Shown here: positions 1 to 47,598 of the stretch, in pieces
How positions within the stretch are numbered: position 1 is the first letter of the stretch
Layout of the letters: each line of letters begins with the position of its first letter
DNA from: a virus
DNA: 64,000 nt
Direction: 5' to 3' (one strand)
Virus record (IMG/VR): IMGVR_UViG_3300045241_000115
Coordinates: 9,960 to 73,959 of that record
Made by a program: the position numbers and the translations under genes
The notes under the pieces: model-generated
Told to the model about the DNA's origin: nothing
Databases searched by the model: none
Seen by the model: the letters and a program-made list of their open reading frames with translations, nothing else

Positions 1-8
1 AGGCCGAG

Positions 9-1031: not shown

Positions 1032-1360
1032 CCGAACTTGTCGACCGGCAGTTCATGCTGTCGGCGATCCTCGCGCGCGATCCCGACGCGACAAGACTCC
1101 ATCTGCGCCATCTGCAGGTGTTGGAACACGTCTGCTCCGGCAACGGCGTGCTGACATCGGCAGTGATTGCCGCCGAGCTTGACATCAGCCCGGCGCAAAC
1201 GTCGCGGCTGCTCGCCAAGCTGGAGAGCCACGAAATGATCACGCGCTCCGATCCACGTTATCGCCCGATGACGTGGGGGCCGACGGTGCGCGGCCGCGCG
1301 CTGATCATACGCCTGCGCACCTACGTCTCTGCGTGCCTGTCAACCGACCAAGCCGCCTAA
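1028..1360 (+). CDS. MarR-like winged-helix DNA-binding protein
   Basis: LTSAVIAAELDISPAQTSRLLAKLESHEMITR...T..GR; ATG overlaps the ERF stop (ATGA). Confidence 0.7.
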   Translation: MTELVDRQFMLSAILARDPDATRLHLRHLQVLEHVCSGNGVLTSAVIAAELDISPAQTSRLLAKLESHEMITRSDPRYRPMTWGPTVRGRALIIRLRTYVSACLSTDQAA

Positions 1361-1376
1361 ACAGAAAGGAACAACC

Positions 1377-2975
1377 ATGAACACGCTGAGTATCGCGCTT
1401 GAGAACCTGCGCCCCGATCCCGCCAACGCCCGTCATGTCTGCGACAACGACGTTTCCAGCCTCGCCGCCTCCATCGACCGCGTCGGCCTGTTGCAGCCCA
1501 TCGTGGTGCGGCCCGACGGCGACTCCTGGCTCGTCGTCGCCGGCAACCGTCGCGTACAAGCCTGTCGTACGCTTGGTCGTACGCACATCGACGCCGTGGA
1601 ATTCGCCGTGGACGAGGACCATGAGGCCGTCGCGGCGTCGGCTGCGGAAAACATGGTGCGCATGCCCATGCACCCCGTTGACACGTGGCGTGCGATGACC
1701 GCGCTGATCGATGGGGGCTACTCCCGCGAGGGTGCCGCCGACGCGCTCGGCGTCTCCCACGTCATGGCCCGTCGCCTCGATCATCTGGGCCGCATGGCGC
1801 CGCAGCTCGTGGACGCCATCGCCACCCAGGCGGAACTGCCCCAGGCGTCGATCATGCGCACCATCGCGCTGGCCCCGACCCCGGTGCAGCAAAAGGCCCT
1901 GGCGGCCGCGAGCCGGGGCGGCAAGGTCGATTGGTGGCGCGTCGCCCAGGGCTGCGAGACCACCCGCATTCCGATGACGCGGGCGATCTTCGACACCGAG
2001 GCCGCCAGCGTCACCTTCGACGAGGACCTGTTCGCCCAGCCGGACGATGACGAGCGGTTCACCACGACCGACATCGCAGGCTTCCTCAAGGCGCAATGCG
2101 ACGCGCTGGACGCCAAGGCTACGGCGTCCAAGGGGCGCATGACCGCCTATGTCTGGTCGCGCCCCCTGCGCCTGCGCGACCGCATGCCGAAGGGATGGGC
2201 GGCGACTTACGACGACCCGCCGAAGCGGTGGAAGAAGGACGATCCGCGTCATCTGTTCGCCAGCGTGATCGGCGAGGGCTACGAGATCGGCGCGGTCGAG
2301 TACGTCGTGGCCGCCCCCAAGGTGGACCGCCCGGCTGCTGCGGCAACGGTCGGGACCGAGACGGTGCGCGAGCGGTCGCCGATCAGCAAGATGACGATAA
2401 ACCGCCTCGCGATGATGAAGCGCGAGGCCGTCGTGGAGCGTCTGCCTCTGATCGCGGCGAACGCCAACCCCTCGGACATGCTGCGCGCGCTGTTGCTCGT
2501 GCTGACCTTCGAGAATGTCAGCCTGTGGGACAGCGACCGCCGCTACGGCACCTCGCCCTATCGCGACCTCGCCCGCCATCTGGTCGATCACGAGGGAAAG
2601 CCTGTCGATCTGTCCGAGGCGCAGCTTTGCGTCCTAGCCGCCGATGCGATCGGACGCGTGGTGAAGTTCGAGGGCGCCGACATCGCCAACTCGTCCGGCC
2701 CCCAGGCCGAATGGCTGGCGGCGATGGTGGGGGCCGAGATGCCACGCTGCGACAGCGAGGAAATCCTGAAAGGGCTGACCAAGGACGCGCTGATCGAACT
2801 GGCCCGCCAGCACGGCATATCCGAGCAGGGCAAGACCGTCGAGATCAGGGGGAGGCTGATCGGACATTTGCCCGACTGGCGGCCCGCTGACTTCGGCGCC
2901 AAGGGCCCGTCCGGCTACCACTTCGAGCGGGAGCAGGCCGACGACGAGTCCGACGATGCGGAGGAGGCTGCGTGA
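1377..2975 (+). CDS. ParB/RepB/Spo0J-family protein (long form)
   Basis: LAASIDRVGLLQPIVVRP, VVAGNRRV, AENMVR..MHPVD and an HTH; preceded by the AACAGAAAGGAAC leader. Confidence 0.85.
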   Translation: MNTLSIALENLRPDPANARHVCDNDVSSLAASIDRVGLLQPIVVRPDGDSWLVVAGNRRVQACRTLGRTHIDAVEFAVDEDHEAVAASAAENMVRMPMHPVDTWRAMTALIDGGYSREGAADALGVSHVMARRLDHLGRMAPQLVDAIATQAELPQASIMRTIALAPTPVQQKALAAASRGGKVDWWRVAQGCETTRIPMTRAIFDTEAASVTFDEDLFAQPDDDERFTTTDIAGFLKAQCDALDAKATASKGRMTAYVWSRPLRLRDRMPKGWAATYDDPPKRWKKDDPRHLFASVIGEGYEIGAVEYVVAAPKVDRPAAAATVGTETVRERSPISKMTINRLAMMKREAVVERLPLIAANANPSDMLRALLLVLTFENVSLWDSDRRYGTSPYRDLARHLVDHEGKPVDLSEAQLCVLAADAIGRVVKFEGADIANSSGPQAEWLAAMVGAEMPRCDSEEILKGLTKDALIELARQHGISEQGKTVEIRGRLIGHLPDWRPADFGAKGPSGYHFEREQADDESDDAEEAA

Positions 2976-29560: not shown

Positions 29561-32500
29561 CAGTGCAGCGTCCTGGCTTTGAGTTCTTGCACTTCGGCGT
29601 GAAGCTCCTGCACTGCTCTGACCAAGGCGGCGACGATAGGCGTGGTGCTGAAGCTCAGTCTTTCACTCTTAGGATCGACCTCGCCGTCAAATCCTATGCC
29701 GCATGGTATTGCTGCCTCGGGGATAATCTCGTGGACCTGCTGGGCGCCAAAGCCGATGTCCTCACGATCATCAGGCACTAGCTTGCGGTTGATGCGAAAA
29801 ACACGACGATACCGGACAGGTCGCAGCCGCAGCACTTCAGCCAACCCATATTCTGACGGCACGATGTCCATTTTGACGCGCTCATCTGAGCTAAGGTCTT
29901 GATACGGACCCATGCCCCCGACATAAAGCAGGTTGTTGTAGCACCACCTGTCGTTGCGATTATACCATTGGTAGCCGTAGCCAGCATTATACCATATCAA
30001 GTCGCCATTGGAGCCGTTCCAAAGCCAGAACCAACTTCCCGCAAACGAGAATTGCCTGTTAGCGCCATTCGGAAAGAAGCCGAAGTTGCCGTCGTTCTGA
30101 GCAAACACGCCACCTTGGGCAAGGACCGAATTGGCGGCATAGAAATCCCCGTTGGCACGCATACTCGCCTTAAGCGCAGCATTGGCGACGAAATCGTAAT
30201 TCCCGTTTCCGGTGTTATAAGAAAAATAGTAGTTCGTGTTGTCGGCCCAATAGATGGCATTGCCCGCGTTCATGATGTAGCTGCCCGAGCGGATGATGCC
30301 GGTGACGGTCATTTTAGGCGTGGTCACTTGCAGGTTCGCCAGACCATCGACGTTCAGGTTCATATTCGTGCCGTCGGAGAACCCGACGTAGCCCTGTCGC
30401 GTGCCAGCCGCGTTGAAGAACCCGACGTAGCCAGCATTCGAGGCGCCGCCTGGATTGAGTTGAGCGTTGCCGGTGCCTTGCCCAGCCGTCACAGAGCCAC
30501 CCACTGTGGCGTTGCCGGTCACGTTCAATCCGACGATGTTGGTCAGTCCGCTCGCGCGGTTGATGGTGATCGGACTGTCGAGGTATGTGCCGGCGTCGTT
30601 GAAGCGTGAGACGGCGAAGTTCGACCCCGTGTTGCTGCCGCTCTCTGCCGTGGCGTCGGCCATAGAAATAGTCCAGCGCGGGGCTGCGCCGGTATAACTA
30701 GCGATCTGAGCACCGAAACCAGATGCGCGGGTCAGATTGAGGTTCGCCCACTGGCCAGCAGCCCCGTTGATACCAACCGCGTTGGTCACGGCGAGACTGC
30801 CCGACAGGGTTCCCCCTGTGAGCGGAAGATACGCGGAGAGCGACGCGGAGACCTGTGCGGCGGTTTGATAGCCCGACGGGTTGGACGCCGCGTAGCGGCT
30901 GGTATCCGTGGGATGAACGTGATCCGCGCGCGCCCACGTCGTGCCGGTGCCGACAGCGGCAGTCCCGTCCATCACGGGTGTAGTCGTGGACGCCGGCAAC
31001 ACCGCAACCACGTCGGCGTTGGTCAGCACCACCGCGCCTTGGCGCCCATTGAAGCTCGACACGCCCGCGACGCTGGCAGCGAGCGCGTTCATCACAAAAG
31101 CCGTGGTGGCCCAGAATGTCGTGCTGTCGCCGGGCGAGCGCGTGTTGCCGGCATTGTAGAGCGGATAGATGCCGGCAGTGTCAGTCCACACCGCCTGCGA
31201 GGCGCCCGACGGGATCGTAATAGTGCCACCGCTCGTGCCGCGAACGGTGGTCGGCTGTGTCGTGGTATTGTTGATCGTCCATAGCAGCCGGATCGTCGAA
31301 GCGACCGGCATGGTGATCGTGGATGGCGCGGTCGGGCTGCCATAAACGTAAAGATAGGCCCAATCCACTTGATCGACCGATGGCGTCGCCGCGTTCGACG
31401 TCACATCCACAAGGCCGCGCGCCTTGTTGCGATCGGAATATTGCTTCGTCGCGGCTTGCAGCGCAGCGGTCGGATCAGCAGCCAGGAGCAGCGGCTGGTA
31501 GACGTTCACGTTGCCGCCGGCGGCCGCGAGAACATCATTGCCAGCGATCACAAGACCAATGACTCCACCGGCAGCGGCGACGAGGTTCAGGCGTCCGCTC
31601 GACACCCCTACCCCGTAGCTGGTGCTGAATAGGGCGATGTGCTTCGACAGATCGTAGATCGAACCGCCGACCGCGTTGCCGAACGACAGCCCGACATTTG
31701 CCGTCAGCAATCCATTGAATGTGGCGGGTCCACTGACGGTGAGCGCGCCGGTCATTTGCAGCCCATTCACCGTGAAACGCGCAATCCGGTTTTGATTAGC
31801 ATCGGATGCGGTGTCGTTCTGCCCGCCGTTGTTGACCCACACATCGAGATATTCATTGCCCCATGCGCTCGTTGAATACCCAGAGCGCAGCGACGCAGTG
31901 AGGCGCGCCCCCAGGTCCGCGCCGCTTTGGAACGTGCCGGCGAACCGCAGCTTGCCTTCCAAAGAATTACCGACGCCGGGTGGGCCTACCTGTAGCTGGG
32001 CGCTCGTCGCGGTCGGCAAGACGGTGACGACCAGCGCGCCAGTCATCGTATCGCCGGTCACGTTTACCCACCGCGCATCCCCTGCGGCTGGCGTGATCGT
32101 GTTGTTGTCAACATACTGCTTGGTCGCGGCGTGCATTGCGGCAGTTGGATCGGCGGGAAGCGTGATGCCGTTTGAGTTGATCACCGCTATGTCAACACCA
32201 GCCTTCACGAACACATGTTGACCACTAGCATCAACGTTGTAATTGAGGCGAGCAGAAGAAACGCTGAAACCGTAAGTGCCGCCCCACAGACTGATGTGGT
32301 GCGAAAGATCTGTGATACCACTGGTCACACTACCAAGCGACAACCCAGCATTTGCCGTCAGCAATCCATTGTTAACTAGCGCACCAGAAAGTGTGCCGCC
32401 GCTAAGAGGTAAGTAATTTCCAAGGTCGCCCGAATTTGCCAGTTGTCCGACATGGTTGCCGTCGACATACATATCGGCATGGCCGTTGACCCAGGCGAAA

Positions 32501-34566
32501 CCAAAGAGGTTGCCGCCACCAGAGATACCAGCGTAACCGAGACCGACACCCGCAATATTCAAATTACCACCGGAGCCAAGGGTCATAACTTGTTTGGCGG
32601 TGGAGGCTGCGGTCTGCTGAAACCACGCGAACGAAGTGGTGGGCAGGAAGCCGAGGAAGTTATTGAAGAAATCAACCTCTGCCTGACCGGCGTTGAAATT
32701 CCACCCGATCGAACCTACTGCCCCAGGCAGTGCCGGGATCGTGCCACCCAGATTGCCAAAGACCGATAAGAGGGAGGCCGCCGCTCCCGAGTTCGCCGTC
32801 AGCAGCCCACCCACAGTGAGCGGACTGTCAGAGACGTTCCCTCCTGGGGCGAGATGCAGCAGGCGCGTTGTGGCAGAGTAGAAATCGTGCACCGCGCCGC
32901 TGCCGGCGATGTAATTCAGGGTGTGGTCGGTGACCGAGAAGCCATAAGCGGCGCCATACAGATCGATGTGGTGCGAAAAATCGCTTGGCGTGCCTGAGAC
33001 TGCGGAACCGAGCGAGATGCCAAAGTTGAAAGATGAACGCTGCATGAACTGCGACGTGCTGTTGAATGTCGCAGCCACATCCACCGCCACACTGCCGGAA
33101 TAGAGCCGGATAAGCGTGGTTTCGACCGATTGATTAGCCCAGAACGAAATGTCTAACCGGTTGGAATAGTTGCCTATCATAAACTGCGAACCGGCAGGAC
33201 TTGCGTTGCCGATCCATATCGCGGCGTAATGACTGGCCGTGTCCAGGTAGAGGTTCGCGCCGAAGCTTCGCCAGCCGGTCTCCGGTGCATTGATCGTCAG
33301 CGTTCCGGTCATGGTATCGCCGGCAACGTTCACCCATCGCGCATCGCCAGCCGCCGGGGTGATCGTGTTGTTATCCACGTATTGTTTCGTCGCCGCTTGC
33401 AGCCCGGAGGCGGGATCGGCGGCGAGCATCAACGGACCAAAGAGATTGATGGCGCCGGTAGCGCGGATGATTTGCAGTCCGTTGCCGATAAACGAGCCAT
33501 CGTCGGCGAAGCGATGGATGATGAAATTGGTGCCAGCGTTGCCGCCGCTCTCGGCCTCAGTGCCGCCGAACTCCACCGACCAGCGCGTCTTGCCTTGACG
33601 TTTGCTCTCAAAGTAACCCGCTGCCGTCCCGGCGGCCTGTGTCGTGTTCCATTTGACCGCAGGCCAGTCGCTACCCGTGCCGGTGACATACAGCGCCGAG
33701 TCGGTCGCCGACTGGATCGTCAGTGCGCCGGTCAGCGTGCCGCCTGTCAACAACAGGTATCGTGCATCACCCTGTGCCTGCGTCAGATAGCGCGCGTCGC
33801 CCGTGCGCATGTTCAGCCCATCGGTCGCCGCCGTCGCGTCCGCCACCTGCGTGATGCGGTTGTTCAGCATCGACAATGTGCCGTAGAACTGGGCGGCACC
33901 GGCAAACGTGCCGAAAATCGTGCTGCCCTGCACGCTCATGACGATCGCGTTAGCGCTGCGCGATAGCCCGGTGCCGTCGGCCGCACCAAGCTGCAAGGCC
34001 GGCGCAGCAACGGTGCCGTTCGGCAATTGCAGCGGCCCGGTGAGCGCGCCACCGGTCAAAGGCAGATAGGCGCCCTCGACGCCTGTGATCTGCGCGTCAA
34101 CGTATTGCTTGGTCGCCGCCTCCATCGGATCGACCGGGTTTTGGAACAGATACAGCGGCCCCTGCATCGTGCCGCCGACCAGCGGCAAATAACCCGCCAT
34201 GCCGCTGTTCGCGATGACCCACTGGCTGCTGGTCGGGTCCGTGTAGCGGATGAAGAGCTGCGTCGAAACGCTGTCCCACCACAGATCGCCAGAGTTGGGC
34301 GAGCCTGGTGGCGTGTCCGAGATCGTGACCGAGGCGCCGCCGCCAGGACCGCCCGACGCCGCGCTGTTGTACAGCAGCTTGCGTCCCGTCGCGTCCATGT
34401 CGGTCGGCACACCGACCCAGAGTTTCATCGGGTCCGCAAGCTCGATGCCAAGCTCGCCCACGAGCAGCAGGTTCTCCGGCGGCGCCTTGTCCGGATCCAC
34501 CGTGTAAAGATGCTGAGCGAGATCCCAGCGCTCGCCGCTCACGCGCGTCCGAACGTCGTCCGGCAT
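29560..34566 (-). CDS. giant modular fibre protein (about 1670 aa) with C-terminal intramolecular chaperone
   Basis: GELGI, GDLWWDS, many YLPL.GGT and AATKQYVD repeats; SDERVKMDI...GFGAQ; TAATG start coupling. Confidence 0.8.
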   Translation of the reverse strand: MPDDVRTRVSGERWDLAQHLYTVDPDKAPPENLLLVGELGIELADPMKLWVGVPTDMDATGRKLLYNSAASGGPGGGASVTISDTPPGSPNSGDLWWDSVSTQLFIRYTDPTSSQWVIANSGMAGYLPLVGGTMQGPLYLFQNPVDPMEAATKQYVDAQITGVEGAYLPLTGGALTGPLQLPNGTVAAPALQLGAADGTGLSRSANAIVMSVQGSTIFGTFAGAAQFYGTLSMLNNRITQVADATAATDGLNMRTGDARYLTQAQGDARYLLLTGGTLTGALTIQSATDSALYVTGTGSDWPAVKWNTTQAAGTAAGYFESKRQGKTRWSVEFGGTEAESGGNAGTNFIIHRFADDGSFIGNGLQIIRATGAINLFGPLMLAADPASGLQAATKQYVDNNTITPAAGDARWVNVAGDTMTGTLTINAPETGWRSFGANLYLDTASHYAAIWIGNASPAGSQFMIGNYSNRLDISFWANQSVETTLIRLYSGSVAVDVAATFNSTSQFMQRSSFNFGISLGSAVSGTPSDFSHHIDLYGAAYGFSVTDHTLNYIAGSGAVHDFYSATTRLLHLAPGGNVSDSPLTVGGLLTANSGAAASLLSVFGNLGGTIPALPGAVGSIGWNFNAGQAEVDFFNNFLGFLPTTSFAWFQQTAASTAKQVMTLGSGGNLNIAGVGLGYAGISGGGNLFGFAWVNGHADMYVDGNHVGQLANSGDLGNYLPLSGGTLSGALVNNGLLTANAGLSLGSVTSGITDLSHHISLWGGTYGFSVSSARLNYNVDASGQHVFVKAGVDIAVINSNGITLPADPTAAMHAATKQYVDNNTITPAAGDARWVNVTGDTMTGALVVTVLPTATSAQLQVGPPGVGNSLEGKLRFAGTFQSGADLGARLTASLRSGYSTSAWGNEYLDVWVNNGGQNDTASDANQNRIARFTVNGLQMTGALTVSGPATFNGLLTANVGLSFGNAVGGSIYDLSKHIALFSTSYGVGVSSGRLNLVAAAGGVIGLVIAGNDVLAAAGGNVNVYQPLLLAADPTAALQAATKQYSDRNKARGLVDVTSNAATPSVDQVDWAYLYVYGSPTAPSTITMPVASTIRLLWTINNTTTQPTTVRGTSGGTITIPSGASQAVWTDTAGIYPLYNAGNTRSPGDSTTFWATTAFVMNALAASVAGVSSFNGRQGAVVLTNADVVAVLPASTTTPVMDGTAAVGTGTTWARADHVHPTDTSRYAASNPSGYQTAAQVSASLSAYLPLTGGTLSGSLAVTNAVGINGAAGQWANLNLTRASGFGAQIASYTGAAPRWTISMADATAESGSNTGSNFAVSRFNDAGTYLDSPITINRASGLTNIVGLNVTGNATVGGSVTAGQGTGNAQLNPGGASNAGYVGFFNAAGTRQGYVGFSDGTNMNLNVDGLANLQVTTPKMTVTGIIRSGSYIMNAGNAIYWADNTNYYFSYNTGNGNYDFVANAALKASMRANGDFYAANSVLAQGGVFAQNDGNFGFFPNGANRQFSFAGSWFWLWNGSNGDLIWYNAGYGYQWYNRNDRWCYNNLLYVGGMGPYQDLSSDERVKMDIVPSEYGLAEVLRLRPVRYRRVFRINRKLVPDDREDIGFGAQQVHEIIPEAAIPCGIGFDGEVDPKSERLSFSTTPIVAALVRAVQELHAEVQELKARTLH

Positions 34567-34814
34567 TACCGCCCGCTCCACCATTCGTACAAGTCCGCGA
34601 TCTCCCGGAGCCGCTCGGCAATCAGCGCGTTGTGCTTTGCCGCTTGCGGCCACATCGCCGGATGGACAACCCGGCCCGGCTCCGCTCGCAGATAGGCGCG
34701 CGCGACCTTCAACTCCGTCAGCAGATCGTCAACCACCAACGCGAGGCGTGCCTTTTCCTCACGCTGGCGTTGGACGATTGCCTCCTCGATCTCGAACACG
34801 TCGGCGCGCGTCAT
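34566..34814 (-). CDS. hypothetical protein
   Basis: TGATG and TAATG coupling. Confidence 0.5.
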   Translation of the reverse strand: MTRADVFEIEEAIVQRQREEKARLALVVDDLLTELKVARAYLRAEPGRVVHPAMWPQAAKHNALIAERLREIADLYEWWSGR

Positions 34815-36274: not shown

Positions 36275-37261
36275 TTAGATGCCGTCGCGGTATCCAATGG
36301 TCTCCGGATACGGGCTTTCGACCTGCCCCATCCGTGCCCAGTACGTCGTCAGGTTGTAGAGGCTGCGCCATTCCAGCGGTGTTCTCTGCAACGGCGTCAT
36401 CGGGAAACGCACTTTGTCGTATTCCTTCGTGTAGGCGATCATCCGCTGCGTGTTGCCGCTGCCGCGGTTCTTCAGCCACTTCGACGCCTGGATGTTCAGC
36501 GGCTTGGCGCCGTTCGTCGTGGTCAGGTTGTTCTCTTGGATGTAGCGCAGCACCGAGACGTTGCCGGCCGAGCTGACCTTGGTCGAGATCAACAGCGACA
36601 TCTGCAACGGCGGAATGCGCAACTCGGACGGCACGATTGCGAAGCCCGACGCTTCCCACACGCTTTCGAGCAGCTCGTTGATCTGCGCGATCATCGTATC
36701 GGGGTTGGTCGTCCAGGCACCGCCGGTGACGTTTGCGACGTTGGTCACCTGCGACAGGTTCGTGATGCCTGTCGTGCCGATCAGCGGATCACCGATATAG
36801 ACGAGCTGATCGATGTCCATCTGATTTTTGAGCCGAAGCGCTTGGAACTTCTGCTCATCGATCGGACGGCCAAGCTGCATCGCCGAGGCGAGTTCCGGCA
36901 TCGTGTAGGACAGCTCTTGCGCCCACAGACGCAGGGGCAGAGCGGTCTTGCCGATGTCCAGCGATACGCTCTGGATCGCGTTGGTGGCTTTGCCGATCCA
37001 CGAGATGCCTTGCGTGGCAAAGCCACCCGAGGCGCCAAACGTGGAATTGGTGAAGGACGACCACTCGTCGCCGGTCGTGATGTCGGATCGCAGGTCGATA
37101 TCGCGTGACCATGTGATCGACACCAGCGGCTCGTGCAGTGCGGGATCGAGCCGTTCGAGTTCGCCGAGCAGGAAGGCGCCGGCGCTGTCGCGCGTGACGC
37201 CGTCGAATGTTTGCAGACCTCCGTACGTGGGAGGGCCGCCCATGTTCATGCCGTCTGGCAT
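36275..37261 (-). CDS. major capsid protein (DUF2184-like)
   Basis: GAFL.GELERLD..L.EPL...TW.RDI.LR, ID...Y.GD, Y.DGI end. Confidence 0.9.
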   Translation of the reverse strand: MPDGMNMGGPPTYGGLQTFDGVTRDSAGAFLLGELERLDPALHEPLVSITWSRDIDLRSDITTGDEWSSFTNSTFGASGGFATQGISWIGKATNAIQSVSLDIGKTALPLRLWAQELSYTMPELASAMQLGRPIDEQKFQALRLKNQMDIDQLVYIGDPLIGTTGITNLSQVTNVANVTGGAWTTNPDTMIAQINELLESVWEASGFAIVPSELRIPPLQMSLLISTKVSSAGNVSVLRYIQENNLTTTNGAKPLNIQASKWLKNRGSGNTQRMIAYTKEYDKVRFPMTPLQRTPLEWRSLYNLTTYWARMGQVESPYPETIGYRDGI

Positions 37262-37331: not shown

Positions 37332-37847
37332 TCAGATGTTGTAGGCAACCTCGACGATGCCGTTCGCGTCAGCGCCCGACATGAAGATGGCATTGGGCAG
37401 AGCGACGCAGGTGCCGGCCGCAGGAGCGACCGCTGTCACGTTGCCTTGCGTCTGTCCGCCGGCACTCGCGCCCGTCCAGACATTGACGGGAGCGTTCTTC
37501 ACCGCGGCCGTTGCGCCGCCGAGTTTGACCAGCATGTATCCGCGCCGCAGCACGTCGACCGTCCCTGCTGGAGGCGGTGTTGCTGCGCCGATCGGATCGT
37601 TGAGCGAGCCGGGCGGTACGCCGAAGCCCTGCGTCGGGTAGGGACGCACGCTCAGACCGTAGAAGCCCGCCACGTCCGCGGTTGCAGGCGGGCGGATCGT
37701 GCCGGTCGCAGGATCCATCACGACGACCTGGCCGTAGTACGTGGGAGGCGTCGTCGTGTTGATCTGCTGGGCCTCGACCGTCGCGTGCTCAACGCGACTG
37801 AGTGCCCCGGGAAACCCCGTGGGCATGTTCAAGAGGTATGCTACCAC
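37332..37847 (-). CDS. head decoration/cement protein
   Basis: AYL..MP.G.PG..SR, G..VRPYP, VLRRGY, VEVAYNI. Confidence 0.8.
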   Translation of the reverse strand: MVAYLLNMPTGFPGALSRVEHATVEAQQINTTTPPTYYGQVVVMDPATGTIRPPATADVAGFYGLSVRPYPTQGFGVPPGSLNDPIGAATPPPAGTVDVLRRGYMLVKLGGATAAVKNAPVNVWTGASAGGQTQGNVTAVAPAAGTCVALPNAIFMSGADANGIVEVAYNI

Positions 37848-38823: not shown

Positions 38824-38861
38824 CGTTGCCCTCCTTTGCTGGCAGTAGTCACAGCCGCAAA

Positions 38862-39038
38862 TCACGGCTGGTCGGGCTCGTCGGGATAATCGATGTCCTC
38901 GTCGAGCTTCTCGATCGGCGATTTCTGTCCGACCAAGGACGGCACACCGAGTTGCTCGGCCTCGCCGTCCCACACCACCTCGTCGTCGATGGTGACGATC
39001 ATGCCGTCGGACGTGTTGCTCTTGGGGTCCTTGGCCAT
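38862..39038 (-). CDS. small acidic protein downstream of the ART domain
   Basis: AAAGGG SD; 58 aa. Confidence 0.55.
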   Translation of the reverse strand: MAKDPKSNTSDGMIVTIDDEVVWDGEAEQLGVPSLVGQKSPIEKLDEDIDYPDEPDQP

Positions 39039-39049
39039 CGCTTTCCCTT

Positions 39050-42000
39050 TCAGACCGTGGTGCAGCGAACGATGTGCTGCTTGCCGACTTTCTCGATTTC
39101 GTAGACATCGAATGCGATGCCGTGCCGCAGCAGCACTTCGTTCTCTGAGACGTAGGATTTGTCTGCCGCCCATATGCCGAGTGCCGGCGTTCCCTTTCGG
39201 GCGACGATTTCGTAGATCACGCTCTTGGATGAGAACGCCGCTTCCTTCGCCATGCTGGTCGAAGTGAAACCGAGGCGCTGTGGCCGCACGATTTTGCCGG
39301 CCGCCAGACCGTCCTTCCATTGCTGCAGCATCGCGTCGGGAACGTCCTCGCCGCGTCGCAGTATCGCGTCCGCGTGCAGCACCGCGTCGGGATGCTCGAA
39401 CAGAAGGTCGATGTCATCGACCATTTCCTGGGCGTATGCCGGCGCCGTGGCGTCGCTGCGCAATGCACCGTTGATGCCGCCGGACCCGCCTTTGTAGGAG
39501 ACACATGCGGCCTTGCCGGCCTTGCTCACGTCGGGCTTGGTCCACCACGAACGATCGAGCGAGGGGCAAATAGCTCTGGCCTGCGGAGCGGCGGCGCTGG
39601 GGACGTCGTGTGCCTGCTTACGTTTTGCCTGCGCTATCTCGAGGCGCTTCTGGTTCGGCGTTCGGACCGCGTTGGGGCTGGGTGTGGTCGAGGAGGACGG
39701 GGACGCAGATGTGGCCGGACTCACGGTTCCGACCGGCGTACCGCTCAGCTTTTGGATCCATTGGTTGGCAAGTGTTTTGACGGAAGGATCGAGCGATGTG
39801 TTCGCCAGCGCGGTGATCTTCGCGATCTTCGCTGCGCTGATGTTGGAGGGATCGACCGCGATCTTGAAGATTTGGGCATGTAGCGATGCCGCGCTTTGCG
39901 GCGGCGGCGTTGAGGCCGCTGGCTGAGGCGTCGGCGTCGCGGCCGGTTTGGGCGGTACGGACGCGGTCGGTTTCGGCGCCGCCTTGGCCGAAGGCGTGAC
40001 GCCATGCGCCGCGCCCACATGGGCGATCATCGTGTTGGCGTATTTGGCGATCGATCCGTGTTTATAGTTGCTGGCGAGCTGCTGGATCTGCGCGGCCGCC
40101 TCGTGCGGGTCGGTGCCTTTTGTCAGCAATTCCTTGGTGAGCGCGTGCAGCTTCTTGCCGGCCGGCGTCGACCAATAGGCGGGCGGATGAGGCACGGTCT
40201 GCGCCGCAGCCGCGACCTTGCTCCCACCACTGCCGCCGCCGCCCCCACCGCCGCCCGATGTGAACTCGCCACCGCCCGGGCTGCCCTTCGGCACGCGTGG
40301 GTGCTCGCCTTCCACGAAGTCGGCGTCGGCGTAATCGATGTCCTCGCCGTTGTCGTAGTCGATGTCAGCGCCATCGTCGGCCTCGCCTTCGTCCTCGTCC
40401 TCGAGGAATTCCAGCGGGTCGAAGCCCAGCATGGCGATGACATCGGCGGGCGTTACCTCGAGCAGCTCGTCGTCGGGATCCTCGTCATCCTCGTCCGGAT
40501 CCGGCAGCGGAGATCCGACCTCGCCCCAATGGGCGTCGGGAAGTTCTCTGTCCCCGTCGTCATCGGCCCATGCAGCGTCCGCAGTGCCGCCGATGCCGGC
40601 CGATTGCTGCCATTGCGCGAACACGACCGGCGAGATGTAGGACTGCAAGGCGATCGTCGGCGTGTTGCCGAGCTTCTGCGAAACGATGGTGGCGACGTGT
40701 TTGACCGCGCGCTTGTACTCGCGCTCGTTGGTCGGCTCCGGCGTTCTCTCCACTTCATCGAGCGCGGTCTGCGTGCCGAGGTGGGTGCGGAAATCCTTGG
40801 TCTTGAACGAGCCGTCGCCGAGCGAGTGGACGTGCTTGAGCAGCCCGCCTGCGTTGACACCGAACAGATCGCCGCGTGCGCCTGCGGCCTCTTTGCGCTT
40901 GAGCAGCATCTTGGCGATGCCGGGGTCCTGGATCGGCAGGTCGAGGGAGACGCCCTTCTTGCCGGTGAAGCGCAGCCGCACGCCGTCCTTCAGCGAGACG
41001 ACGTGGCGACCTTGGAGTGTGGTGGCGCCGTATGCCTGCGTCTCAGCCCCGGTATCGCCGGTGCTGCCGGGCCGGATGCCGGTCGCCATGATCAACGCGG
41101 TCGCATCAGCCGCCTCGCGGGTCGCAAGCTCGCGCCGCGCCGCCTCGTTCTGTTTGCGAACGTCCTTGAACGCCTCGGCGAGCTTCTTGGCGCGCGCGAA
41201 CTTCGCGGCCGCCTGTTTGGCGGAGAATTCCGCCGAATAGACCAATTGCCTGCGACCCTTCACGTCGCGTCCGGTCGCCTGCAGTTTGGCCGCGGGATCG
41301 GGCGAATAGGTGACGTCGGTCCAGGCGGGCGGGAGCTTGAGCTTCTGGATGTGCTCAGGCAGGTCGGCGCCCGACGAAGTGACGCGTTTGCCGTTGGCGA
41401 CCTTCGTCGTCTCGTGATGAGCGGCAGCGCCACCGCCGCCACCGCCACCTGACGTGAACTCACCACCGCCAGGACCGCTTTTGACGCGCGGATGCTCGGA
41501 CTCAACGAAGGCGTCGTAGCTGTATTCGGGTGTGCCGCTGTCGAGGATCGTGCATCGGCTGCCGCAGCGACCTTCGTCCACCAACGCCACGTGGTTGCAG
41601 AAGATGTTGCGCTGTCGGCCGAGGCCAGGAGCCGTCTGCTCGTAGTGCGCGTTGTACCCCACGCTGATCGCGCGCTTGCCGCGCTTGACCGCATCGATGC
41701 CGCGTCGTGTCGTGAAGATCAGATCCGCAAGCAGCAGGTCATCGTAGGCGCCCTCACCGCGGCGCGGATTGGACACGTAGCCTATGGCGAGATCGGAATA
41801 GTTGTCTGGCCCGACCGCATCGTACGGATGATCGTCCACCAGCGGTTTGCCAATGAAGCTGCGCACGCTGTCTGGCGAGAACACTTCGGACGCCTCGCGG
41901 TCGACGTGCACGCGCCCGCCCTGGTCGCCCTGCAATGGAGGGACTTCATTTTCCCAGTAAATCTGCGTGCCGGTGCGCGCGATGGGCACGTTGCGGCAGA

Positions 42001-42064
42001 TCAGGTAGCCTTCGGCGGTCTCTTCCTGATTGGCCGAGAGTTTGGAGACGGTATGCCATTCCAT
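39050..42064 (-). CDS. DUF2213-type prohead protease fused to type IB topoisomerase and VIP2/Alt-like ADP-ribosyltransferase
   Basis: Protease: GYLIC..VPIARTG.Q.Y, HP, S.GY, NHVALV..GRCG. TopoIB: GRD.KGR.Q..Y, IRPG, YGATTL, F.GKKG, KDFRT, LGNTP...SYI. ART: IN..LR, LRRG, GFTSTS, ENEVLL. Confidence 0.85.
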   Translation of the reverse strand: MEWHTVSKLSANQEETAEGYLICRNVPIARTGTQIYWENEVPPLQGDQGGRVHVDREASEVFSPDSVRSFIGKPLVDDHPYDAVGPDNYSDLAIGYVSNPRRGEGAYDDLLLADLIFTTRRGIDAVKRGKRAISVGYNAHYEQTAPGLGRQRNIFCNHVALVDEGRCGSRCTILDSGTPEYSYDAFVESEHPRVKSGPGGGEFTSGGGGGGGAAAHHETTKVANGKRVTSSGADLPEHIQKLKLPPAWTDVTYSPDPAAKLQATGRDVKGRRQLVYSAEFSAKQAAAKFARAKKLAEAFKDVRKQNEAARRELATREAADATALIMATGIRPGSTGDTGAETQAYGATTLQGRHVVSLKDGVRLRFTGKKGVSLDLPIQDPGIAKMLLKRKEAAGARGDLFGVNAGGLLKHVHSLGDGSFKTKDFRTHLGTQTALDEVERTPEPTNEREYKRAVKHVATIVSQKLGNTPTIALQSYISPVVFAQWQQSAGIGGTADAAWADDDGDRELPDAHWGEVGSPLPDPDEDDEDPDDELLEVTPADVIAMLGFDPLEFLEDEDEGEADDGADIDYDNGEDIDYADADFVEGEHPRVPKGSPGGGEFTSGGGGGGGGSGGSKVAAAAQTVPHPPAYWSTPAGKKLHALTKELLTKGTDPHEAAAQIQQLASNYKHGSIAKYANTMIAHVGAAHGVTPSAKAAPKPTASVPPKPAATPTPQPAASTPPPQSAASLHAQIFKIAVDPSNISAAKIAKITALANTSLDPSVKTLANQWIQKLSGTPVGTVSPATSASPSSSTTPSPNAVRTPNQKRLEIAQAKRKQAHDVPSAAAPQARAICPSLDRSWWTKPDVSKAGKAACVSYKGGSGGINGALRSDATAPAYAQEMVDDIDLLFEHPDAVLHADAILRRGEDVPDAMLQQWKDGLAAGKIVRPQRLGFTSTSMAKEAAFSSKSVIYEIVARKGTPALGIWAADKSYVSENEVLLRHGIAFDVYEIEKVGKQHIVRCTTV

Positions 42065-42289
42065 GATGACGGGGCGCCTCCCCTGACCGACGAGGAACGA
42101 CACAAGCAGCAAAAGTTGCGGCTGTGGGCTATGGAGTTGTCCTATTCCATGCCGGAATTAGACGACCTGATGCTCGGTCGGCCGCCTCGTCCGCCGCCGT
42201 CATTCTGGCAGCGCGTGAAGCGTTGGTTTCGGCGGCTTTATCGCGACTGATAGACGCGCACGCGCCCGTTGCGCATCACGTCGCTGCGT

Positions 42290-42580
42290 TCATCGCCGAG
42301 TGACCTTGACGCGGCCTGACGGCATCACATCGATGCGCAAAATGCGCCTGGTCGCGCTGTCCTTCGGCTTTTGACGTGCCGCCTTGGTTTTGGCGTTACG
42401 CTCGAACGCCGACTCCTTGCCCTCCCAGTACTCTTCCTCTTTCGGCTTCTCGGCCATGGCATCTACCCCTGTGATCGTGCCCTTGTTCTTGGAGCGGTAG
42501 AACACCTCCTCGCCCTTCTCCTCGCCGTACTGCTCCTTCATGGCCGCGAGGATCTTCTCGCCCTTCGCCGTCAACGGCAT
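42290..42580 (-). CDS. conserved small phage head-region protein
   Basis: MPLT.KG.KI...M...YG..KG..VFY.S.NKG.I.GV. Confidence 0.7.
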   Translation of the reverse strand: MPLTAKGEKILAAMKEQYGEEKGEEVFYRSKNKGTITGVDAMAEKPKEEEYWEGKESAFERNAKTKAARQKPKDSATRRILRIDVMPSGRVKVTRR

Positions 42581-42910: not shown

Positions 42911-43447
42911 TCACCTCCCCCGAGAGAGTACGAACCGGGCGGGATAGTTGATAGCGCCCCATCGCGGCGTCGCCCTGCCCACCATACCGGCCCGCTCCAT
43001 CACCTTGATCTGCTCGTAGACCGCCACCCGCGTCAGTCCACAGCCCGCGGCGATCTCAGCAACGGTGACGTCGTTGTGTGAGGCCAGGAATTCCGTTATC
43101 CGCTTCTGTCGCGACGGCCCCACCAGCGTATCCTCGCGATTAACTTCCGGGGATGTTTTCAGTCGGGCGCGATAGGCAGCGCGTTTGATCGCGATGAACC
43201 GCAACGGCGCGGTCTGGCTGAGGCCCGGCTTGATAATGCGATAGACGGCCATCGGTTTGTCGTCGATCCGCACGAGATAACTATGACGCGACGCGCCGCC
43301 GCCTATCACGACACCATGGCCTTCAACGATGGGATGTCCGCCGACCGCCGCACCGTGCACCACCACGCGGTCACCAATCTGAAACGGCGCATCCGACGGG
43401 ATCGGATGAGCGTATTGCGGCGTCATCCTGCGGTTCGCGCGCGGCAT
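42911..43447 (-). CDS. protein with C-terminal winged HTH
   Basis: TVAEIAAGCGLTRVAVYEQI..MERAGMV. Confidence 0.6.
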   Translation of the reverse strand: MPRANRRMTPQYAHPIPSDAPFQIGDRVVVHGAAVGGHPIVEGHGVVIGGGASRHSYLVRIDDKPMAVYRIIKPGLSQTAPLRFIAIKRAAYRARLKTSPEVNREDTLVGPSRQKRITEFLASHNDVTVAEIAAGCGLTRVAVYEQIKVMERAGMVGRATPRWGAINYPARFVLSRGR

Positions 43448-43450
43448 ACC

Positions 43451-44263
43451 TCAGTCAGGGATGATCGGCAGCGCGACGCAACGACAATTCCAAATCTGGC
43501 CGGGATGGCTGTGATAGTCGGGCGGATCAGACAGCGGCGGATCATCCCAACTGTGCACCGAATGGTTGAGCTTGCGATGCGACGGCCGGACTTTCCAATC
43601 GCCCACCGTCTGCCAGATGTACTGCTCGGCACCGATATGCTTGGCCCGTGCCTGGGTCAGCACCGAGGCTGTGCGCGCCGTCTCGGTTCTGGCGATCAGC
43701 GTCGCGCGGTTCTTCAGCCATTCCTCCGTCGCCTTGGGATGCGCCTCGGCAAGCGCCTCCTCGATTTCCGCTGTGCGCTCGGGATATCGCGCCGAAGTCT
43801 CCAATGCGGCGACCGTGCGCTCGTGCACGCGCTCGGCGGCTTCGGTGGGCAATGACGTGATCAATTCGACCTGCTCGGCGAGTAATTGCTGCATGTGTTC
43901 GCCGGTCGGGGCGTTGCGGATTTCCATCTGCAGGCCGGCGGACATGCGGGCGGTGTATTTCTGCCACGCCGTTTTGTTGCGTCGATTGACCTCGCGGATC
44001 ATGCGCCACGCCGTCGCCCGCGCCCACGGCGTGATCGCCGTCTTATAGGCGCGCATCGCTTCGCGGATACGAGCGAGCTGCGCCGGCGTGAACGGCGTCT
44101 TGGGATCCTCGGGCGCATGCGCCTCGACGATGCGCGCGATATGGCGCGCAGCCTGACGCAGTTGAGCGCCGTACGAGGCCTGAGCGTTGCGGGCCTTCTG
44201 GAATTGGGCCTCGGCTGCTTCCGCCTGACGTTGTGCTTTGCGGCGTTCCGATTGCGACGGCAT
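43451..44263 (-). CDS. MuF/gp7-like minor head protein
   Basis: RA.LIARTET, Y.W.T.GD.KVR.SH, HPGQIWNCRC. Confidence 0.9.
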   Translation of the reverse strand: MPSQSERRKAQRQAEAAEAQFQKARNAQASYGAQLRQAARHIARIVEAHAPEDPKTPFTPAQLARIREAMRAYKTAITPWARATAWRMIREVNRRNKTAWQKYTARMSAGLQMEIRNAPTGEHMQQLLAEQVELITSLPTEAAERVHERTVAALETSARYPERTAEIEEALAEAHPKATEEWLKNRATLIARTETARTASVLTQARAKHIGAEQYIWQTVGDWKVRPSHRKLNHSVHSWDDPPLSDPPDYHSHPGQIWNCRCVALPIIPD

Positions 44264-44267
44264 CGCA

Positions 44268-44693
44268 TCAGACGTTCGGCGGATCCTTGAGCGCCAGCGG
44301 GTTGTCGCGCGCCCATTGGTTCCAGGCAACCGCCAGATCGTAGTCGGCGAACTTGGCGTAGATCGGCCGGTTTGCGCCGTTGTTGGTCGCCAGCGCATAG
44401 AACATCTCGGTCGGTGTGCCGCGCGCGATGTCGGGAGCGAACAGCGTGGTGCCTTCGCGCACGATCCAAGCCGGCGATTTGACCGGCGATGTGTCAGGCG
44501 GCGGTCCCCCCATCGAGCCGAGGATCACCGGCACGACCGGTACCGCGCCCGTCTCATCGACGAGCCATGCCAGCACGGGGTTGTCGTGCAGGATCACCCA
44601 GGCGAGGCCGGGCCCGATACCATCGACGGGGTCGGGATTGTATTCGCAGGTGACCAAAATCGAGCCGGTGACCGGTGCAACGGCGAGGGTCAT
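44268..44693 (-). CDS. hypothetical protein
   Basis: ATGA coupling to the portal gene. Confidence 0.55.
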   Translation of the reverse strand: MTLAVAPVTGSILVTCEYNPDPVDGIGPGLAWVILHDNPVLAWLVDETGAVPVVPVILGSMGGPPPDTSPVKSPAWIVREGTTLFAPDIARGTPTEMFYALATNNGANRPIYAKFADYDLAVAWNQWARDNPLALKDPPNV

Positions 44694-46222
44694 TCCTCAT
44701 TCTCCATGCTGCTCGCGGCACCATTGCCGCTCTTGGGAACGGGGGTCGAGACGCCCGGCATTCCTGGACCGACGCCCCCGCCAGCGCCGTTCGTCTTGCC
44801 ACCAGGGGCCGCTCCGGGCATTCCCGGCATCGTCTCTCCAGGCTCGGGCTGCTCCCACGGCGCGGGCGCCTCGCCTGCGTCCTCGATGTCCTGCTCGGAG
44901 ATGTTCGTGAACCTGCCTGTTTGGATGCTGCTCTGTTTCAACTCTTTCAGCGCGATCTGCGTGGTGATCACGCCGGCGTCGTGCAGCAGCTTGATTGTAT
45001 CGGAGTCGCGTTGCGCGACCTCGGCCTTTTCCATCTCGTTCAACTGATAGAGCGAGTTGAAGGTGAACGCGAACGTATCGGGCGTATCGGTGCCAAGCGT
45101 GCTGCGCCATATCACGTCGAACAGCTTGGTCAGCGGCCTGCGCAACCGCGCCTCCTGCTGCGCCTTGATCATGTCATAGTACTGCCGGAGGTCGCTTTCC
45201 CCGGTAGAGTTCAGCCCAGCCGGCGATTGACCGAACAGCCGCACGAGCGGAATGCCGAGGGCGCCCGAGATCTGCTGGCCCAGCATCAGCAACGTCTCAG
45301 ACAGACCAGCGAACGAATACGAGTGCGTTTCGAATTCATCCTCGGCATCGATGACCGTCAGCCCTTCGTTGGACTGATAAATCCGCATCAGTTCCATCAG
45401 CTTGTGGAACTTCTCGGTCAGCTCGGAATTGAATGCGACGAGGTTGCGGTAGTCTTTGACCTTGTACGTGCGCAGATAGGCTTTATAGAGAAGCTGCGCG
45501 GTGCCCATCGTGCCGCTGTCAAATGCGACGAGACGGTCCTGCAACCGCTCGATCACGCTCATGCCCCACAGGTTCTCAGTGATGCGTTGATTGAACGGCA
45601 GCCCGATGCCGTCGAGACGAATGCAGCGGGAGTAATGCACCTTCATGTTCGGCAGATACGGCGCCTGCTGAACCACGTCGTACTGCACGGGCATGCCGTA
45701 ATCGGGGCCGAACTCCTTGACGAGGTTCTGATACGTTGGCTGGACCATCCAACGATCCAGCACGACGAAGCCTTTGAGCTGATCCTTCGCGATGCGGTCG
45801 GTCAGCAAAGGCTGCGCCGTGTCCTGACCGTCGATCATCATGACCATCAGCGCGCCGCCGTACAGCCGGCTCCATTTGATCGTGTCGCCCAAGCTCTGCC
45901 ACATGCAGAGTTCGTTGATGCGGGTGTGGATTTTTTCGATGTCGTCAGGCGGCGTGTCGGAATTCATGATCACGCCGGCCCGCGTCATGTCGTCGGCCAC
46001 CACATCAACCGCGGCGCCGACGACCCACGAGCCGCGATACATCCACTCGAGCTTCTGCCGCAGGCGAGTGAGCGGCAGATAGCCGTAGGTCGTGGCCGCC
46101 ATCAGGTTTTGCGTGCCGATGCCCACGCGCGCGGCGAAGTTCTCCACCGAGTCCGTCGTCATGGCGCCTTCCCATGACGATGCACCGGCGCGCACCCGGA
46201 TGCGTGGGCGCGTGCCTGACAT
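44690..46222 (-). CDS. portal protein (DUF1073-like)
   Basis: MYRGSW....VD..A.DMTR, W.RLYGG, IP..RLFGQSP.GLNSTGESD...YYD. Confidence 0.9.
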   Translation of the reverse strand: MSGTRPRIRVRAGASSWEGAMTTDSVENFAARVGIGTQNLMAATTYGYLPLTRLRQKLEWMYRGSWVVGAAVDVVADDMTRAGVIMNSDTPPDDIEKIHTRINELCMWQSLGDTIKWSRLYGGALMVMMIDGQDTAQPLLTDRIAKDQLKGFVVLDRWMVQPTYQNLVKEFGPDYGMPVQYDVVQQAPYLPNMKVHYSRCIRLDGIGLPFNQRITENLWGMSVIERLQDRLVAFDSGTMGTAQLLYKAYLRTYKVKDYRNLVAFNSELTEKFHKLMELMRIYQSNEGLTVIDAEDEFETHSYSFAGLSETLLMLGQQISGALGIPLVRLFGQSPAGLNSTGESDLRQYYDMIKAQQEARLRRPLTKLFDVIWRSTLGTDTPDTFAFTFNSLYQLNEMEKAEVAQRDSDTIKLLHDAGVITTQIALKELKQSSIQTGRFTNISEQDIEDAGEAPAPWEQPEPGETMPGMPGAAPGGKTNGAGGGVGPGMPGVSTPVPKSGNGAASSMENEE

Positions 46223-47598
46223 CAGAGGTTCGCCCAGACGTTCAGGTTGGTGGCGGCGACGAGCTGAAAGGCGCGCGAGGTCGCGTCCGCGTCATCATCG
46301 TGCGGGAGCATGGGGAAGCCCTCGAGCATCTGAAACCAGCGCTCGTTCCAATCGCCGCGCAGCACGAGCACGTTGCCCGCCTGGGCCTGGGCCGAGAACG
46401 GACTGAACCGCGTGATCTTGTCGCCGGTCTCGGGCGAGTACTCGATAGGGAAGCCGGCCAGCATGCGCACGAAGGCGGCGATCTGATGCTTGCCCGCTTG
46501 GCCTGGATCCTGTGGCAGCCCGACCTTGCAGCCGTAACCGTCCTGGCTGGACGTATTCAGCACGACACGCTCGACATCGGCGGGTGTGCCGCGCATGGCT
46601 GAGGCATGCAGCACGATGTACTGGCCTTGCAGCGTGCGGCCGATCTTGACCGATGCCGTCCAGTCCGGATCGTTCTCTTTGGTCTCCGGCGTCGCCGCAA
46701 GATCCCAGCCGCGTCCGCTCAGCACCAATGCTGGCGGGATGTCCACCACACGAACCCACGAGCGGTTGAAGTACAGGCCAGCGGACGGCCTGATCTTCCA
46801 ATTGCCGTTCAACAGCCTTTCGCGTTCGACCGCCGGCAACATCATCAGATTGCCGAGGTACGCCGGGTCGTTGCGCATCAACGCCGGGTTGTCGGCCAAC
46901 TTGGCGGCTATGAATGTGGCGGATTTGATAGTCGCTCTCGATTGCCCGGTTGCGCGCATCGCCTCGTGTTTGCTGTCGAACCAGAGCAGCCCATCGTCGG
47001 GGCCGCGCACGAAGTAGCGGACGACGCCGGAGCGTTCGGCGATCGGGTAGCCGGACTGCTGGTCGATCCACCAGGCGATGAACTCGGCGACCCACGAACC
47101 GGCATCGGCATTGCAGCTCGCGCGGATGTATGGCCGCACGCCGGTCAGACCGCGGTTGCGGGAGAGCAGGTAGAAGAACTGATGGCGGGTGAACGTGGTC
47201 AGCTCGTCGAAGCAGATCAGCGGAACCTGCGAGCCGTGCCAGTCCAGGACGGTGTGTTCATATTCCAAATGGCTGAGTTTGACGCTGCCGCCGTTGGGCC
47301 AGCGCCATTGCAGCAGATGGTTGATCGGGATGCCCTGGCCGTGCGGGAACACCTTCATGCTCTCGGACCACAGCCCGCCCGGGCGACGGATGTCGGTGGT
47401 GTTGCGGCGGAACATCACCGCATCGAAGCCGCGTGTGCGGGAGGGGTAACGCATCGCTTCGAGCAGGAGCGCCCACGATTTGCCCGAGCCGGCGGCGCCG
47501 CCGAAGATGGCGATGTCGGCCGATGAGCTGAGGAAGGCGAGTTGCGGGCCTTCCTGCGGCATGATGCGGCGTTCGGTTTGTCCGATGGCGGCACTCAT
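46222..47598 (-). CDS. terL: terminase large subunit
   Basis: GGAAGSGKS, ICFDELT, ASCN, WDLAAT, QDPGQAG, HDD.AD. Confidence 0.95.
   Translation of the reverse strand: MSAAIGQTERRIMPQEGPQLAFLSSSADIAIFGGAAGSGKSWALLLEAMRYPSRTRGFDAVMFRRNTTDIRRPGGLWSESMKVFPHGQGIPINHLLQWRWPNGGSVKLSHLEYEHTVLDWHGSQVPLICFDELTTFTRHQFFYLLSRNRGLTGVRPYIRASCNADAGSWVAEFIAWWIDQQSGYPIAERSGVVRYFVRGPDDGLLWFDSKHEAMRATGQSRATIKSATFIAAKLADNPALMRNDPAYLGNLMMLPAVERERLLNGNWKIRPSAGLYFNRSWVRVVDIPPALVLSGRGWDLAATPETKENDPDWTASVKIGRTLQGQYIVLHASAMRGTPADVERVVLNTSSQDGYGCKVGLPQDPGQAGKHQIAAFVRMLAGFPIEYSPETGDKITRFSPFSAQAQAGNVLVLRGDWNERWFQMLEGFPMLPHDDDADATSRAFQLVAATNLNVWANL

Follow-up and report, generated by a model that had tools for sequence, protein, structure and literature searches.

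Can enzymes that are fused to a phage's prohead protease be carried with it into the virus head? The question was raised by a single open reading frame (ORF), P0001, within a 64,000-nucleotide stretch of viral DNA (the window) that comprises bases 9960-73959 of the 73,959-base IMG/VR virus record IMGVR_UViG_3300045241_000115, rated complete by CheckV. One sequencing run containing the stretch carries the label soil metagenome, and no RNA dataset was listed as holding it. P0001 lies in a late operon on the minus strand, in the order large terminase (TerL), portal, MuF protein, P0001, small gene P0002, scaffold, cement protein and major capsid protein (coordinates in Table 1), and joins a DUF2213 prohead protease to a type IB topoisomerase (TopoIB) and a C3-like ADP-ribosyltransferase (ART). 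P0001 is probably a set of enzymes that is packed in the virus head, and P0002 is a candidate inhibitor of its ART.

We examined if the fusion is real. The frame ran unbroken from the ATG at 42064 to the TGA at 39050-39052 (1004 codons), encoding in order the protease, a junction tag, TopoIB, an acidic linker, a second junction tag, two helical modules and the ART. All four Pfam domain matches exceeded their curated cut-offs, and this domain composition is near certain. An earlier reading made from the letters alone (the sequence-only reading) had proposed the three-domain fusion within one ORF, and the Pfam matches, AlphaFold2 (AF2) models and alignments placed every domain in the uninterrupted frame. 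An assembly chimera, or a gene in decay, is a rival explanation: the exact architecture has one member on one contig, and two short low-depth Logan contigs link the repeated sequences, one joining tag 1 to tag 2 (40259 to 41430) and the other joining the P0002 and DIDY regions (38917 to 40340). These two contigs were not counted as cassette-less variants, their sides being only 20-21 letters long. However, a Logan contig of 3989 nt from a second assembler (possibly from the source sample) spanned 38899-42400 and crossed the entire ORF with zero mismatches, the frame is open over 1004 codons in DNA of 63% GC, the catalytic residues are all intact, and the protease-tag-TopoIB and DIDY-tag-helical-ART-small gene-scaffold junctions each recur on independent contigs. 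Because the inserts differ among related phages that share these head genes, we regard the fusion as a natural cassette insertion, and a chimera or decaying gene as hardly credible. A scan of genome contigs with P0001 gave zero relatives. Among 50,697 deposited phage records, relatives were found for the protease domain only; the ART had no match, and the TopoIB domain matched a single Bacteroides prophage, weakly (30% identity).

The assignment of the N-terminus as a DUF2213-type protease, also proposed from the letters, was upheld by the Pfam match (Table 1), by the PHROGs label of head maturation protease and by its modelled fold. The AF2 model of residues 1-230 was confident at residues 11-160 (predicted local distance difference test, pLDDT, >90). 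By VIA-align it matched T4 gp21 (5jbl) at Z 11.5 (root-mean-square deviation 2.6, 131 aligned) and the varicella-zoster virus protease (1vzv) at Z 9.9, compared with 6.3 for the next unrelated fold; Foldseek returned the human cytomegalovirus and Epstein-Barr virus proteases at probability 0.99. By these models the DUF2213 domain has the T4 gp21/herpesvirus protease fold. A putative catalytic His-Ser-His set (H79, S134, H158) was invariant in 27 sequences, and the domain terminates in a conserved C167-x3-C171 and an EYSYD tail. The gene sits between the portal and capsid genes, beside the scaffold, and none of the other prohead proteases (S78, ClpP, S49) was found elsewhere in the 74-kb record, DUF2213 being the sole family found. 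As this is the sole prohead protease, the P0001 chain or its N-terminal part must enter procapsids.

For the topoisomerase, Pfam Top1B_N_bact matched residues 234-267 (E 2e-11, 43.9 bits versus a cut-off of 27) and Topoisom_I matched residues 279-471 (E 7e-17, 61.9 bits versus a cut-off of 23.7). Alignment to the Deinococcus radiodurans TopIB 2f4q (E 4e-25, only about 92 bits) placed R331, K369, R426, N467 and Y476 on R137, K174, R239, N280 and Y289 of that enzyme, in full agreement with the intact catalytic set claimed earlier, and the Y476 codon was where it had been read (40637-40639). The pentad was invariant among 64 clade members. By alignment, then, P0001 carries a bacterial-type TopoIB with an intact R-K-R-N-Y set. 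It resembles the bacterial and poxvirus enzymes (2f4q; vaccinia 2h7f) in being a two-domain enzyme with the same pentad, with Asn in fourth place as in the bacterial enzymes; it differs in that most of its large clade is joined to phage head proteins. At E 1e-30 or better, full HMMER searching with this domain retrieved 1142 clusters. The best 150 matches included 134 new members, and domains were tallied for 64 sampled. The median length of the 134 was 715 residues and 15 were of 360 residues or fewer; the junction tag was present in 80 of them, and 11/21 short stand-alone copies bore it at the N-terminus. Partners in the 64 sampled were portal (18), Nudix (9), InPase (4), ART (4), DUF2213 (2), Acb1 (1) and Zeta toxin (1). 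Judged by this tally, enzymes of the TopoIB clade are common as phage head cargo, mostly in fusions with head proteins. The vaccinia virion contains its TopIB. The literature searched nowhere described TopoIB as phage head cargo; a "phage-specific topoisomerase I" of a few jumbo phages has been treated, in a later paper by the group of Iyer et al. 2017, as a DNA-topology gene (PMC7824862), unlike the head-protein fusion in P0001.

The C-terminal enzyme had been read as an ART of the R-S-E type (C3/iota-like, PF03496), and this stood: Pfam ADPrib_exo_Tox matched residues 930-993 above its cut-off (E 2e-7), and the motifs R904 (LRRG), S935-T-S937 (FTSTS) and E974-N-E976 aligned with those of C3 exoenzyme and were nearly invariant across 13 relatives. 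In the AF2 model of residues 601-1004, a pair of small helical bundles precedes a complete ART fold of the C3-like type, with its helical N-terminal part and split beta-sandwich (ART pLDDT about 90), and Foldseek with the ART model returned C3bot1 (E 2e-10, target-normalised TM score 0.70-0.73). Family knowledge of the ExE motif suggests arginine as the predicted acceptor. An NCBIfam XopAI match to the ART fell far under its cut-off and was set aside. The helical modules, with pLDDT of 80-95 in helices and <50 in spacers, have counterparts in P0004/P0005, L005 and L014; they had no Pfam match, and an Atlas search gave no usable match.

How such a chain arose could be followed among relatives. 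Twelve viral contigs have the head module in common (portal 75-80%, capsid protein 82-88% identical) and differ in the interval between protease and scaffold. That interval is cargo-free in L010, where protease and scaffold form one 546-aa chain. P0006 and P0008 are single chains of protease-TopoIB-scaffold; L003 has protease-TopoIB-metallopeptidase with the scaffold separate; L005 and L017 have protease-unknown-helical-ART followed by the small gene and the scaffold; other cargo, DUF7178 among it, is found in L007 and L012; and Nudix cargo also occurs among relatives. DUF2213 homologues had been expected to vary in cargo, and the series does run from the plain form to TopoIB, metallopeptidase and ART forms. 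From these comparisons the protease-scaffold junction is a cargo hot spot, holding different cassettes, or none, in sister phages. As a separate observation, the DUF7178 domain of L012 belongs to a second large cargo-locus gene (L012:4942-8444, 1107 aa). An acidic ORF of 60 aa, not related to P0002, comes next with an ATGA overlap, and the two may represent another pair of cargo and small partner.

In the window, the scaffold half is a gene of its own (P0003), whose product shares 59% identity with the C-terminal third of P0006, a fused protein; phrog_1961 was matched by P0003 in its C-terminal half and by P0001 in its N-terminal half. The sequence-only reading was right about the separate gene and probably wrong about its start, which it had put at the ATG at 38823. 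This ATG is preceded by a strong AAGGAGG site, yet a GTG at 38865, overlapping the P0002 stop (GTGA), is probably the start used, since it gives the scaffold the CxCxxC N-terminus conserved in L003, L005, L012 and P0006. Start and stop codons then overlap from the ART gene through the small gene to the scaffold. Conservation of the CxCxxC peptide ahead of ATG 38823 had also raised the idea that a programmed frameshift fuses P0002 with the scaffold; it was rejected, a GTG start over the P0002 stop, as in L005, being simpler. The scaffold cysteines (ICGCDYC, within 38824-38865) and the invariant C167-x3-C171 at the protease end (41549-41566) flank the old fusion point, and these five cysteines could form a metal site tying protease to scaffold in trans.

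Both cargo blocks of P0001 open with the same kind of peptide, FxExEHPR-x(3-9)-GxF followed by a Gly-rich run. The core of tag 1 (FVESEHPRVKSGPGGGEFTSG7, at residue 186) heads the TopoIB block, and that of tag 2 (FVEGEHPRVPKGSPGGGEFTSG8, at residue 583) heads the helical-ART block. The pattern [FW]xExxHPR-x(3-9)-GxF with glycines occurred in 67 copies in 64 retrieved homologues, always between modules or N-terminal, and within this genome it occurred in P0001 alone. In DUF2213-anchored proteins, internal tags are preceded by a double [DN][IV]D[YFW] (here ADIDYDNGEDIDYAD), and the end of the protease domain resembles that motif (VYDYD generally, EYSYD in P0001). The double DIDY of P0001 falls in the acidic linker that had been noted after TopoIB and was located at residues 490-582. 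Within this linker the block DVIAMLGFDP (40415-40444, residues 541-550) was invariant in 6/6 protease-TopoIB proteins, whether a tag, the scaffold or the protein end comes next, and it was absent from portal-TopoIB fusions, whose chain stops right after the enzyme.

The double DIDY also supplies one copy of a direct repeat (Table 1), and the two EDIDY-encoding copies flank the cassette made of tag 2, helical modules, ART and P0002. From its position, the repeat resembles a scar left when the cassette inserted into an ancestor of protease-TopoIB-scaffold form. A broader proposal, which we advance tentatively and rate at somewhat under an even chance, is that the protease-scaffold junction is a general cargo socket, in which modules led by DIDY-DIDY and FxExEHPR...GxF are carried into the capsid and cut free. 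If this were true, recombination within the repeats that encode the leader would exchange cassettes, and a toxic cassette would come with an inhibitor gene of its own; topoisomerase IB would be an enzyme that phages widely inject, in the manner of poxvirus cores; and the 58-aa protein P0002 would be the first of a new family of ART inhibitors that plug the active site.

We then considered P0002 as a partner of the ART. Its codons (38865-39038) follow an AGGGA site 6 nt upstream, and its homologues were 71-78% identical. Relatives of P0002 were found directly after the ART in 5/5 ART loci of four architectures: protease-TopoIB-ART (this window); protease-X-ART (L005, L017); portal-helical-ART, with the MuF gene next (L014); and a free Nudix-ART protein, with the protease gene next (L016). 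By tblastn, the ART-less loci fetched contained no trace of P0002. The small gene co-varies with the ART and not with the carrier, whether protease, portal or free Nudix-ART protein. A complex model of ART residues 820-1004 with P0002 gave an ipSAE interaction score of 0.87, compared with 0.01 for the best control; runs shared at least 62% of contacts, with a partner pLDDT of at least 68. This mark was reached in a benchmark by 58/80 solved complexes and 2/110 mismatched pairs, counts that hold only roughly for the present model, its alignments having been self-supplied and outside the calibration, a point that tells against the reading. Searches of PDB, Pfam, PHROGs and NCBIfam profiles with P0002 gave zero matches; with no sequence relative in the PDB, the pass is not explained by sequence memory. 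The confident modelled contacts of P0002 include R904, S935-S937, E974 and E976. The immunity-like role once suggested for this small acidic ORF is supported, at the level of models, by the ART synteny and by the placement over the active site, and we think it reasonably likely that P0002 is an ART inhibitor covering that site.

That P0002 is a mere leftover of acidic linker was rejected for its core, given that the core is conserved and accompanies the ART, and kept for its tail, DIDYPDE. DIDYP-like tails occur only in protease-context copies (this window and L017; NIDHPE in L005), and this tail is probably what remains of an old linker. A stretch resembling P0002 also occurs within a 264-aa open frame without a Pfam match on a separate 1-kb metagenome contig (L018:560-667); this could be the small protein in a fused or longer version.

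Taken together, these observations led us to regard P0001 as a phage polyvalent head protein built on the sole prohead protease. The full account would be as follows. The cargo would enter the procapsid with the protease unless cut off beforehand; the protease would cut at or near the Tyr-Asp junctions, freeing both enzymes within the head; both would exit with the DNA, whereupon the topoisomerase would work on incoming or host DNA and the ART would modify a host protein on arginine. P0002 would occupy the ART active-site cleft and silence the ART in the producing cell, and possibly in lysogens. We hold this whole explanation, with packaging, cutting, injection and inhibitor, to be moderately probable. 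Its parts differ: presence of the cargo in capsids is likely, cleavage at the junctions has slightly better than an even chance, and injection of the enzymes is evenly balanced, all three by analogy. The analogy is to T4 Alt, to the MuF toxins and to the same cargo on portals, and from it we infer loading, Tyr-Asp cutting and delivery. Capsid entry, release and injection are consistent with the sole protease, with the same cargo on portals and MuF proteins elsewhere, and with a leader at the junctions.

Several points weigh against this account. P0001 lacks the C-terminal scaffold domain that ties P0006, P0008 and L010 to the procapsid. Tags 1 and 2 had pLDDT <50 and no cis docking on the protease in models, although linear motifs that are recognised in trans would be expected to have low confidence. 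As putative cut sites, DIDY and VYDYD offer a conserved pattern only. The triple combination is known from one contig in one sample. Scanned for promoters and terminators, the DNA showed no sigma-70-like site and no more terminators than its shuffles did; no internal promoter was found for P0002 expression in a lysogen.

The lack of an internal promoter within the operon would also fit enzymes that, while fused, act in the producing cell or inside the capsid with no injection, the topoisomerase, for example, relieving DNA torsion at packaging or ejection beside the portal or core and the ART modifying host or phage proteins late. TopoIB is in most relatives on the portal C-terminus, adjacent to the entering DNA, as this explanation would have it. 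But Nudix, InPase, Acb1, Zeta-toxin and ART domains also occur at these positions and with this tag, and a role in packaging is implausible for them; the set includes a known counter-defence enzyme family, and a predicted ART inhibitor gene suits an enzyme held off in the producer. We consider action without injection unlikely.

The pairing of ART and small gene invites comparison with MuF polymorphic toxins, for which the small gene immediately downstream was proposed to neutralise the toxin (Jamet et al. 2017, PMC5576092). As there, a head protein carries a C-terminal toxin domain with a small gene just downstream; in contrast, the carrier here is the prohead protease, the MuF protein of this phage is toxin-free and P0002 is without a known family. 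The text of that paper mentions no junction motif. P0001 and P0002 could be chiefly a toxin-immunity module of the MuF type, in which the ART arrests non-lysogens, P0002 protects carriers and the topoisomerase is a passenger. The arrangement is as described for MuF toxins, and P0002 follows this ART type wherever it is present and is modelled over its active site. However, no integrase or repressor was identified among the parts of the record scanned, in which Erf-like and ParB-like genes are present, and a promoter for the small gene was not found. The TopoIB pentad is, moreover, under clear purifying selection across the clade, which argues that the topoisomerase is not a mere passenger. That P0001 and P0002 are chiefly a toxin-immunity module seems to us quite improbable.

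T4 loads Alt and its internal proteins via a capsid-targeting sequence, and these are trimmed by gp21. An arginine-type ART is thereby carried in the T4 capsid and injected, the cargo being separate genes with an N-terminal leader. P0001 resembles this system in its protease of the same fold, its ART (predicted here to be of the arginine type) and the short leader on its cargo; it differs in that the cargo is covalently joined to the protease and the leader peptide is another one, the cleavage of P0001 being a prediction. Protease-scaffold fusions with nested genes are of the lambda C/Nu3 type. Sister phage L010, with its DUF2213 protease and scaffold in one chain, is like these and like phrog_1961, whereas in the window 830 cargo residues and a small gene are inserted between the halves and the scaffold is translated separately.

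The closest comparison is with the polyvalent proteins, in which assemblin-like peptidases are always C-terminal and for which packaging and injection were proposed (Iyer et al. 2017, PMC5512222). P0001 is like them in bearing multiple unrelated effectors per chain among the head genes of a terminase-portal phage, and ART, Nudix, InPase and metallopeptidase domains occur in its relatives too. Thus multiple unrelated effectors in a virion-gene context were found and a C-terminal peptidase was not: the peptidase of P0001 is N-terminal (14-176 of 1004) and is the phage's own maturation protease. TopoIB is not among the domains described in PMC5512222, where "topoisomerase" occurs only in a reference title, and the HPR junction peptide is unmentioned. 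P0001 adds three things to the polyvalent proteins: the frequent carriage of TopoIB as head cargo, a cassette organisation marked by a scar-like repeat, and a candidate family of ART inhibitors. From an essential protease, two intact enzymes and relatives that range naturally from cargo-free to loaded, a compact model that can be tested emerges of how exchangeable enzymes get into the heads of tailed phages. Topoisomerase IB becomes one more phage enzyme that the capsid likely delivers, P0002 points to a new family of small proteins that may inhibit C3-like ADP-ribosyltransferases, and the conserved leader could be a handle to package foreign proteins in phage capsids.

Table 1. Features of P0001 and the surrounding head genes (positions in the window; residues, res, are those of P0001).
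Feature	Position	Strand	Remarks
P0001, whole ORF	39050-42064	-	1004 aa + TGA stop
DUF2213 prohead protease domain, res 14-176	41537-42025	-	Pfam E 7e-43
Protease H79	41828-41830	-	
Protease S134	41663-41665	-	
Protease H158	41591-41593	-	
Junction tag 1, res 186-216	41417-41509	-	FVESEHPRVKSGPGGGEFTSGGGGGGG
Type IB topoisomerase, N-terminal + catalytic domains, res 234-485	40610-41365	-	
Acidic linker, res 490-582	40319-40597	-	DVIAMLGFDP block; double DIDY 40325-40369
Junction tag 2, res 583-620	40205-40318	-	FVEGEHPRVPKGSPGGGEFTSGGGGGGGG
Two small helical modules, res 614-687 and 728-774	39743-40225	-	Pro/Ala-rich spacer between
C3-like ADP-ribosyltransferase, res 799-1004	39053-39670	-	
ART R904	39353-39355	-	
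ART E974	39143-39145	-	
ART E976	39137-39139	-	
P0002, 58 aa	38862-39038	-	predicted ART-binding inhibitor; core DGMIVTIDDEVVWDGEAEQLG conserved
26-nt direct repeat	38879-38904 and 40324-40349		23/26 identical; both encode EDIDY
Scaffold gene P0003	37882-38865	-	probable GTG start 38865
Large terminase	46225-47598	-	
Portal	44693-46222	-	family PF06381
MuF protein	43454-44398	-	without toxin domain
Cement protein	37335-37829	-	E217 gp24-like
Major capsid protein	36278-37261	-	PF09950

Other genes were seen near the module. Just upstream of the protease is a 96-aa gene (42293-42580), found at the same position in eight related loci at 51-81% identity and without a family assignment, and between MuF and protease is a 178-aa winged-helix (MarR/ArsR-like) protein (42914-43447), an unusual site for a regulator. 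At 29563-34653 is a 1697-aa tail fibre protein with a C-terminal Peptidase_S74 intramolecular chaperone domain, and the left end of the window (3-2972) encodes the Erf-like annealing protein and the ParB-like protein.

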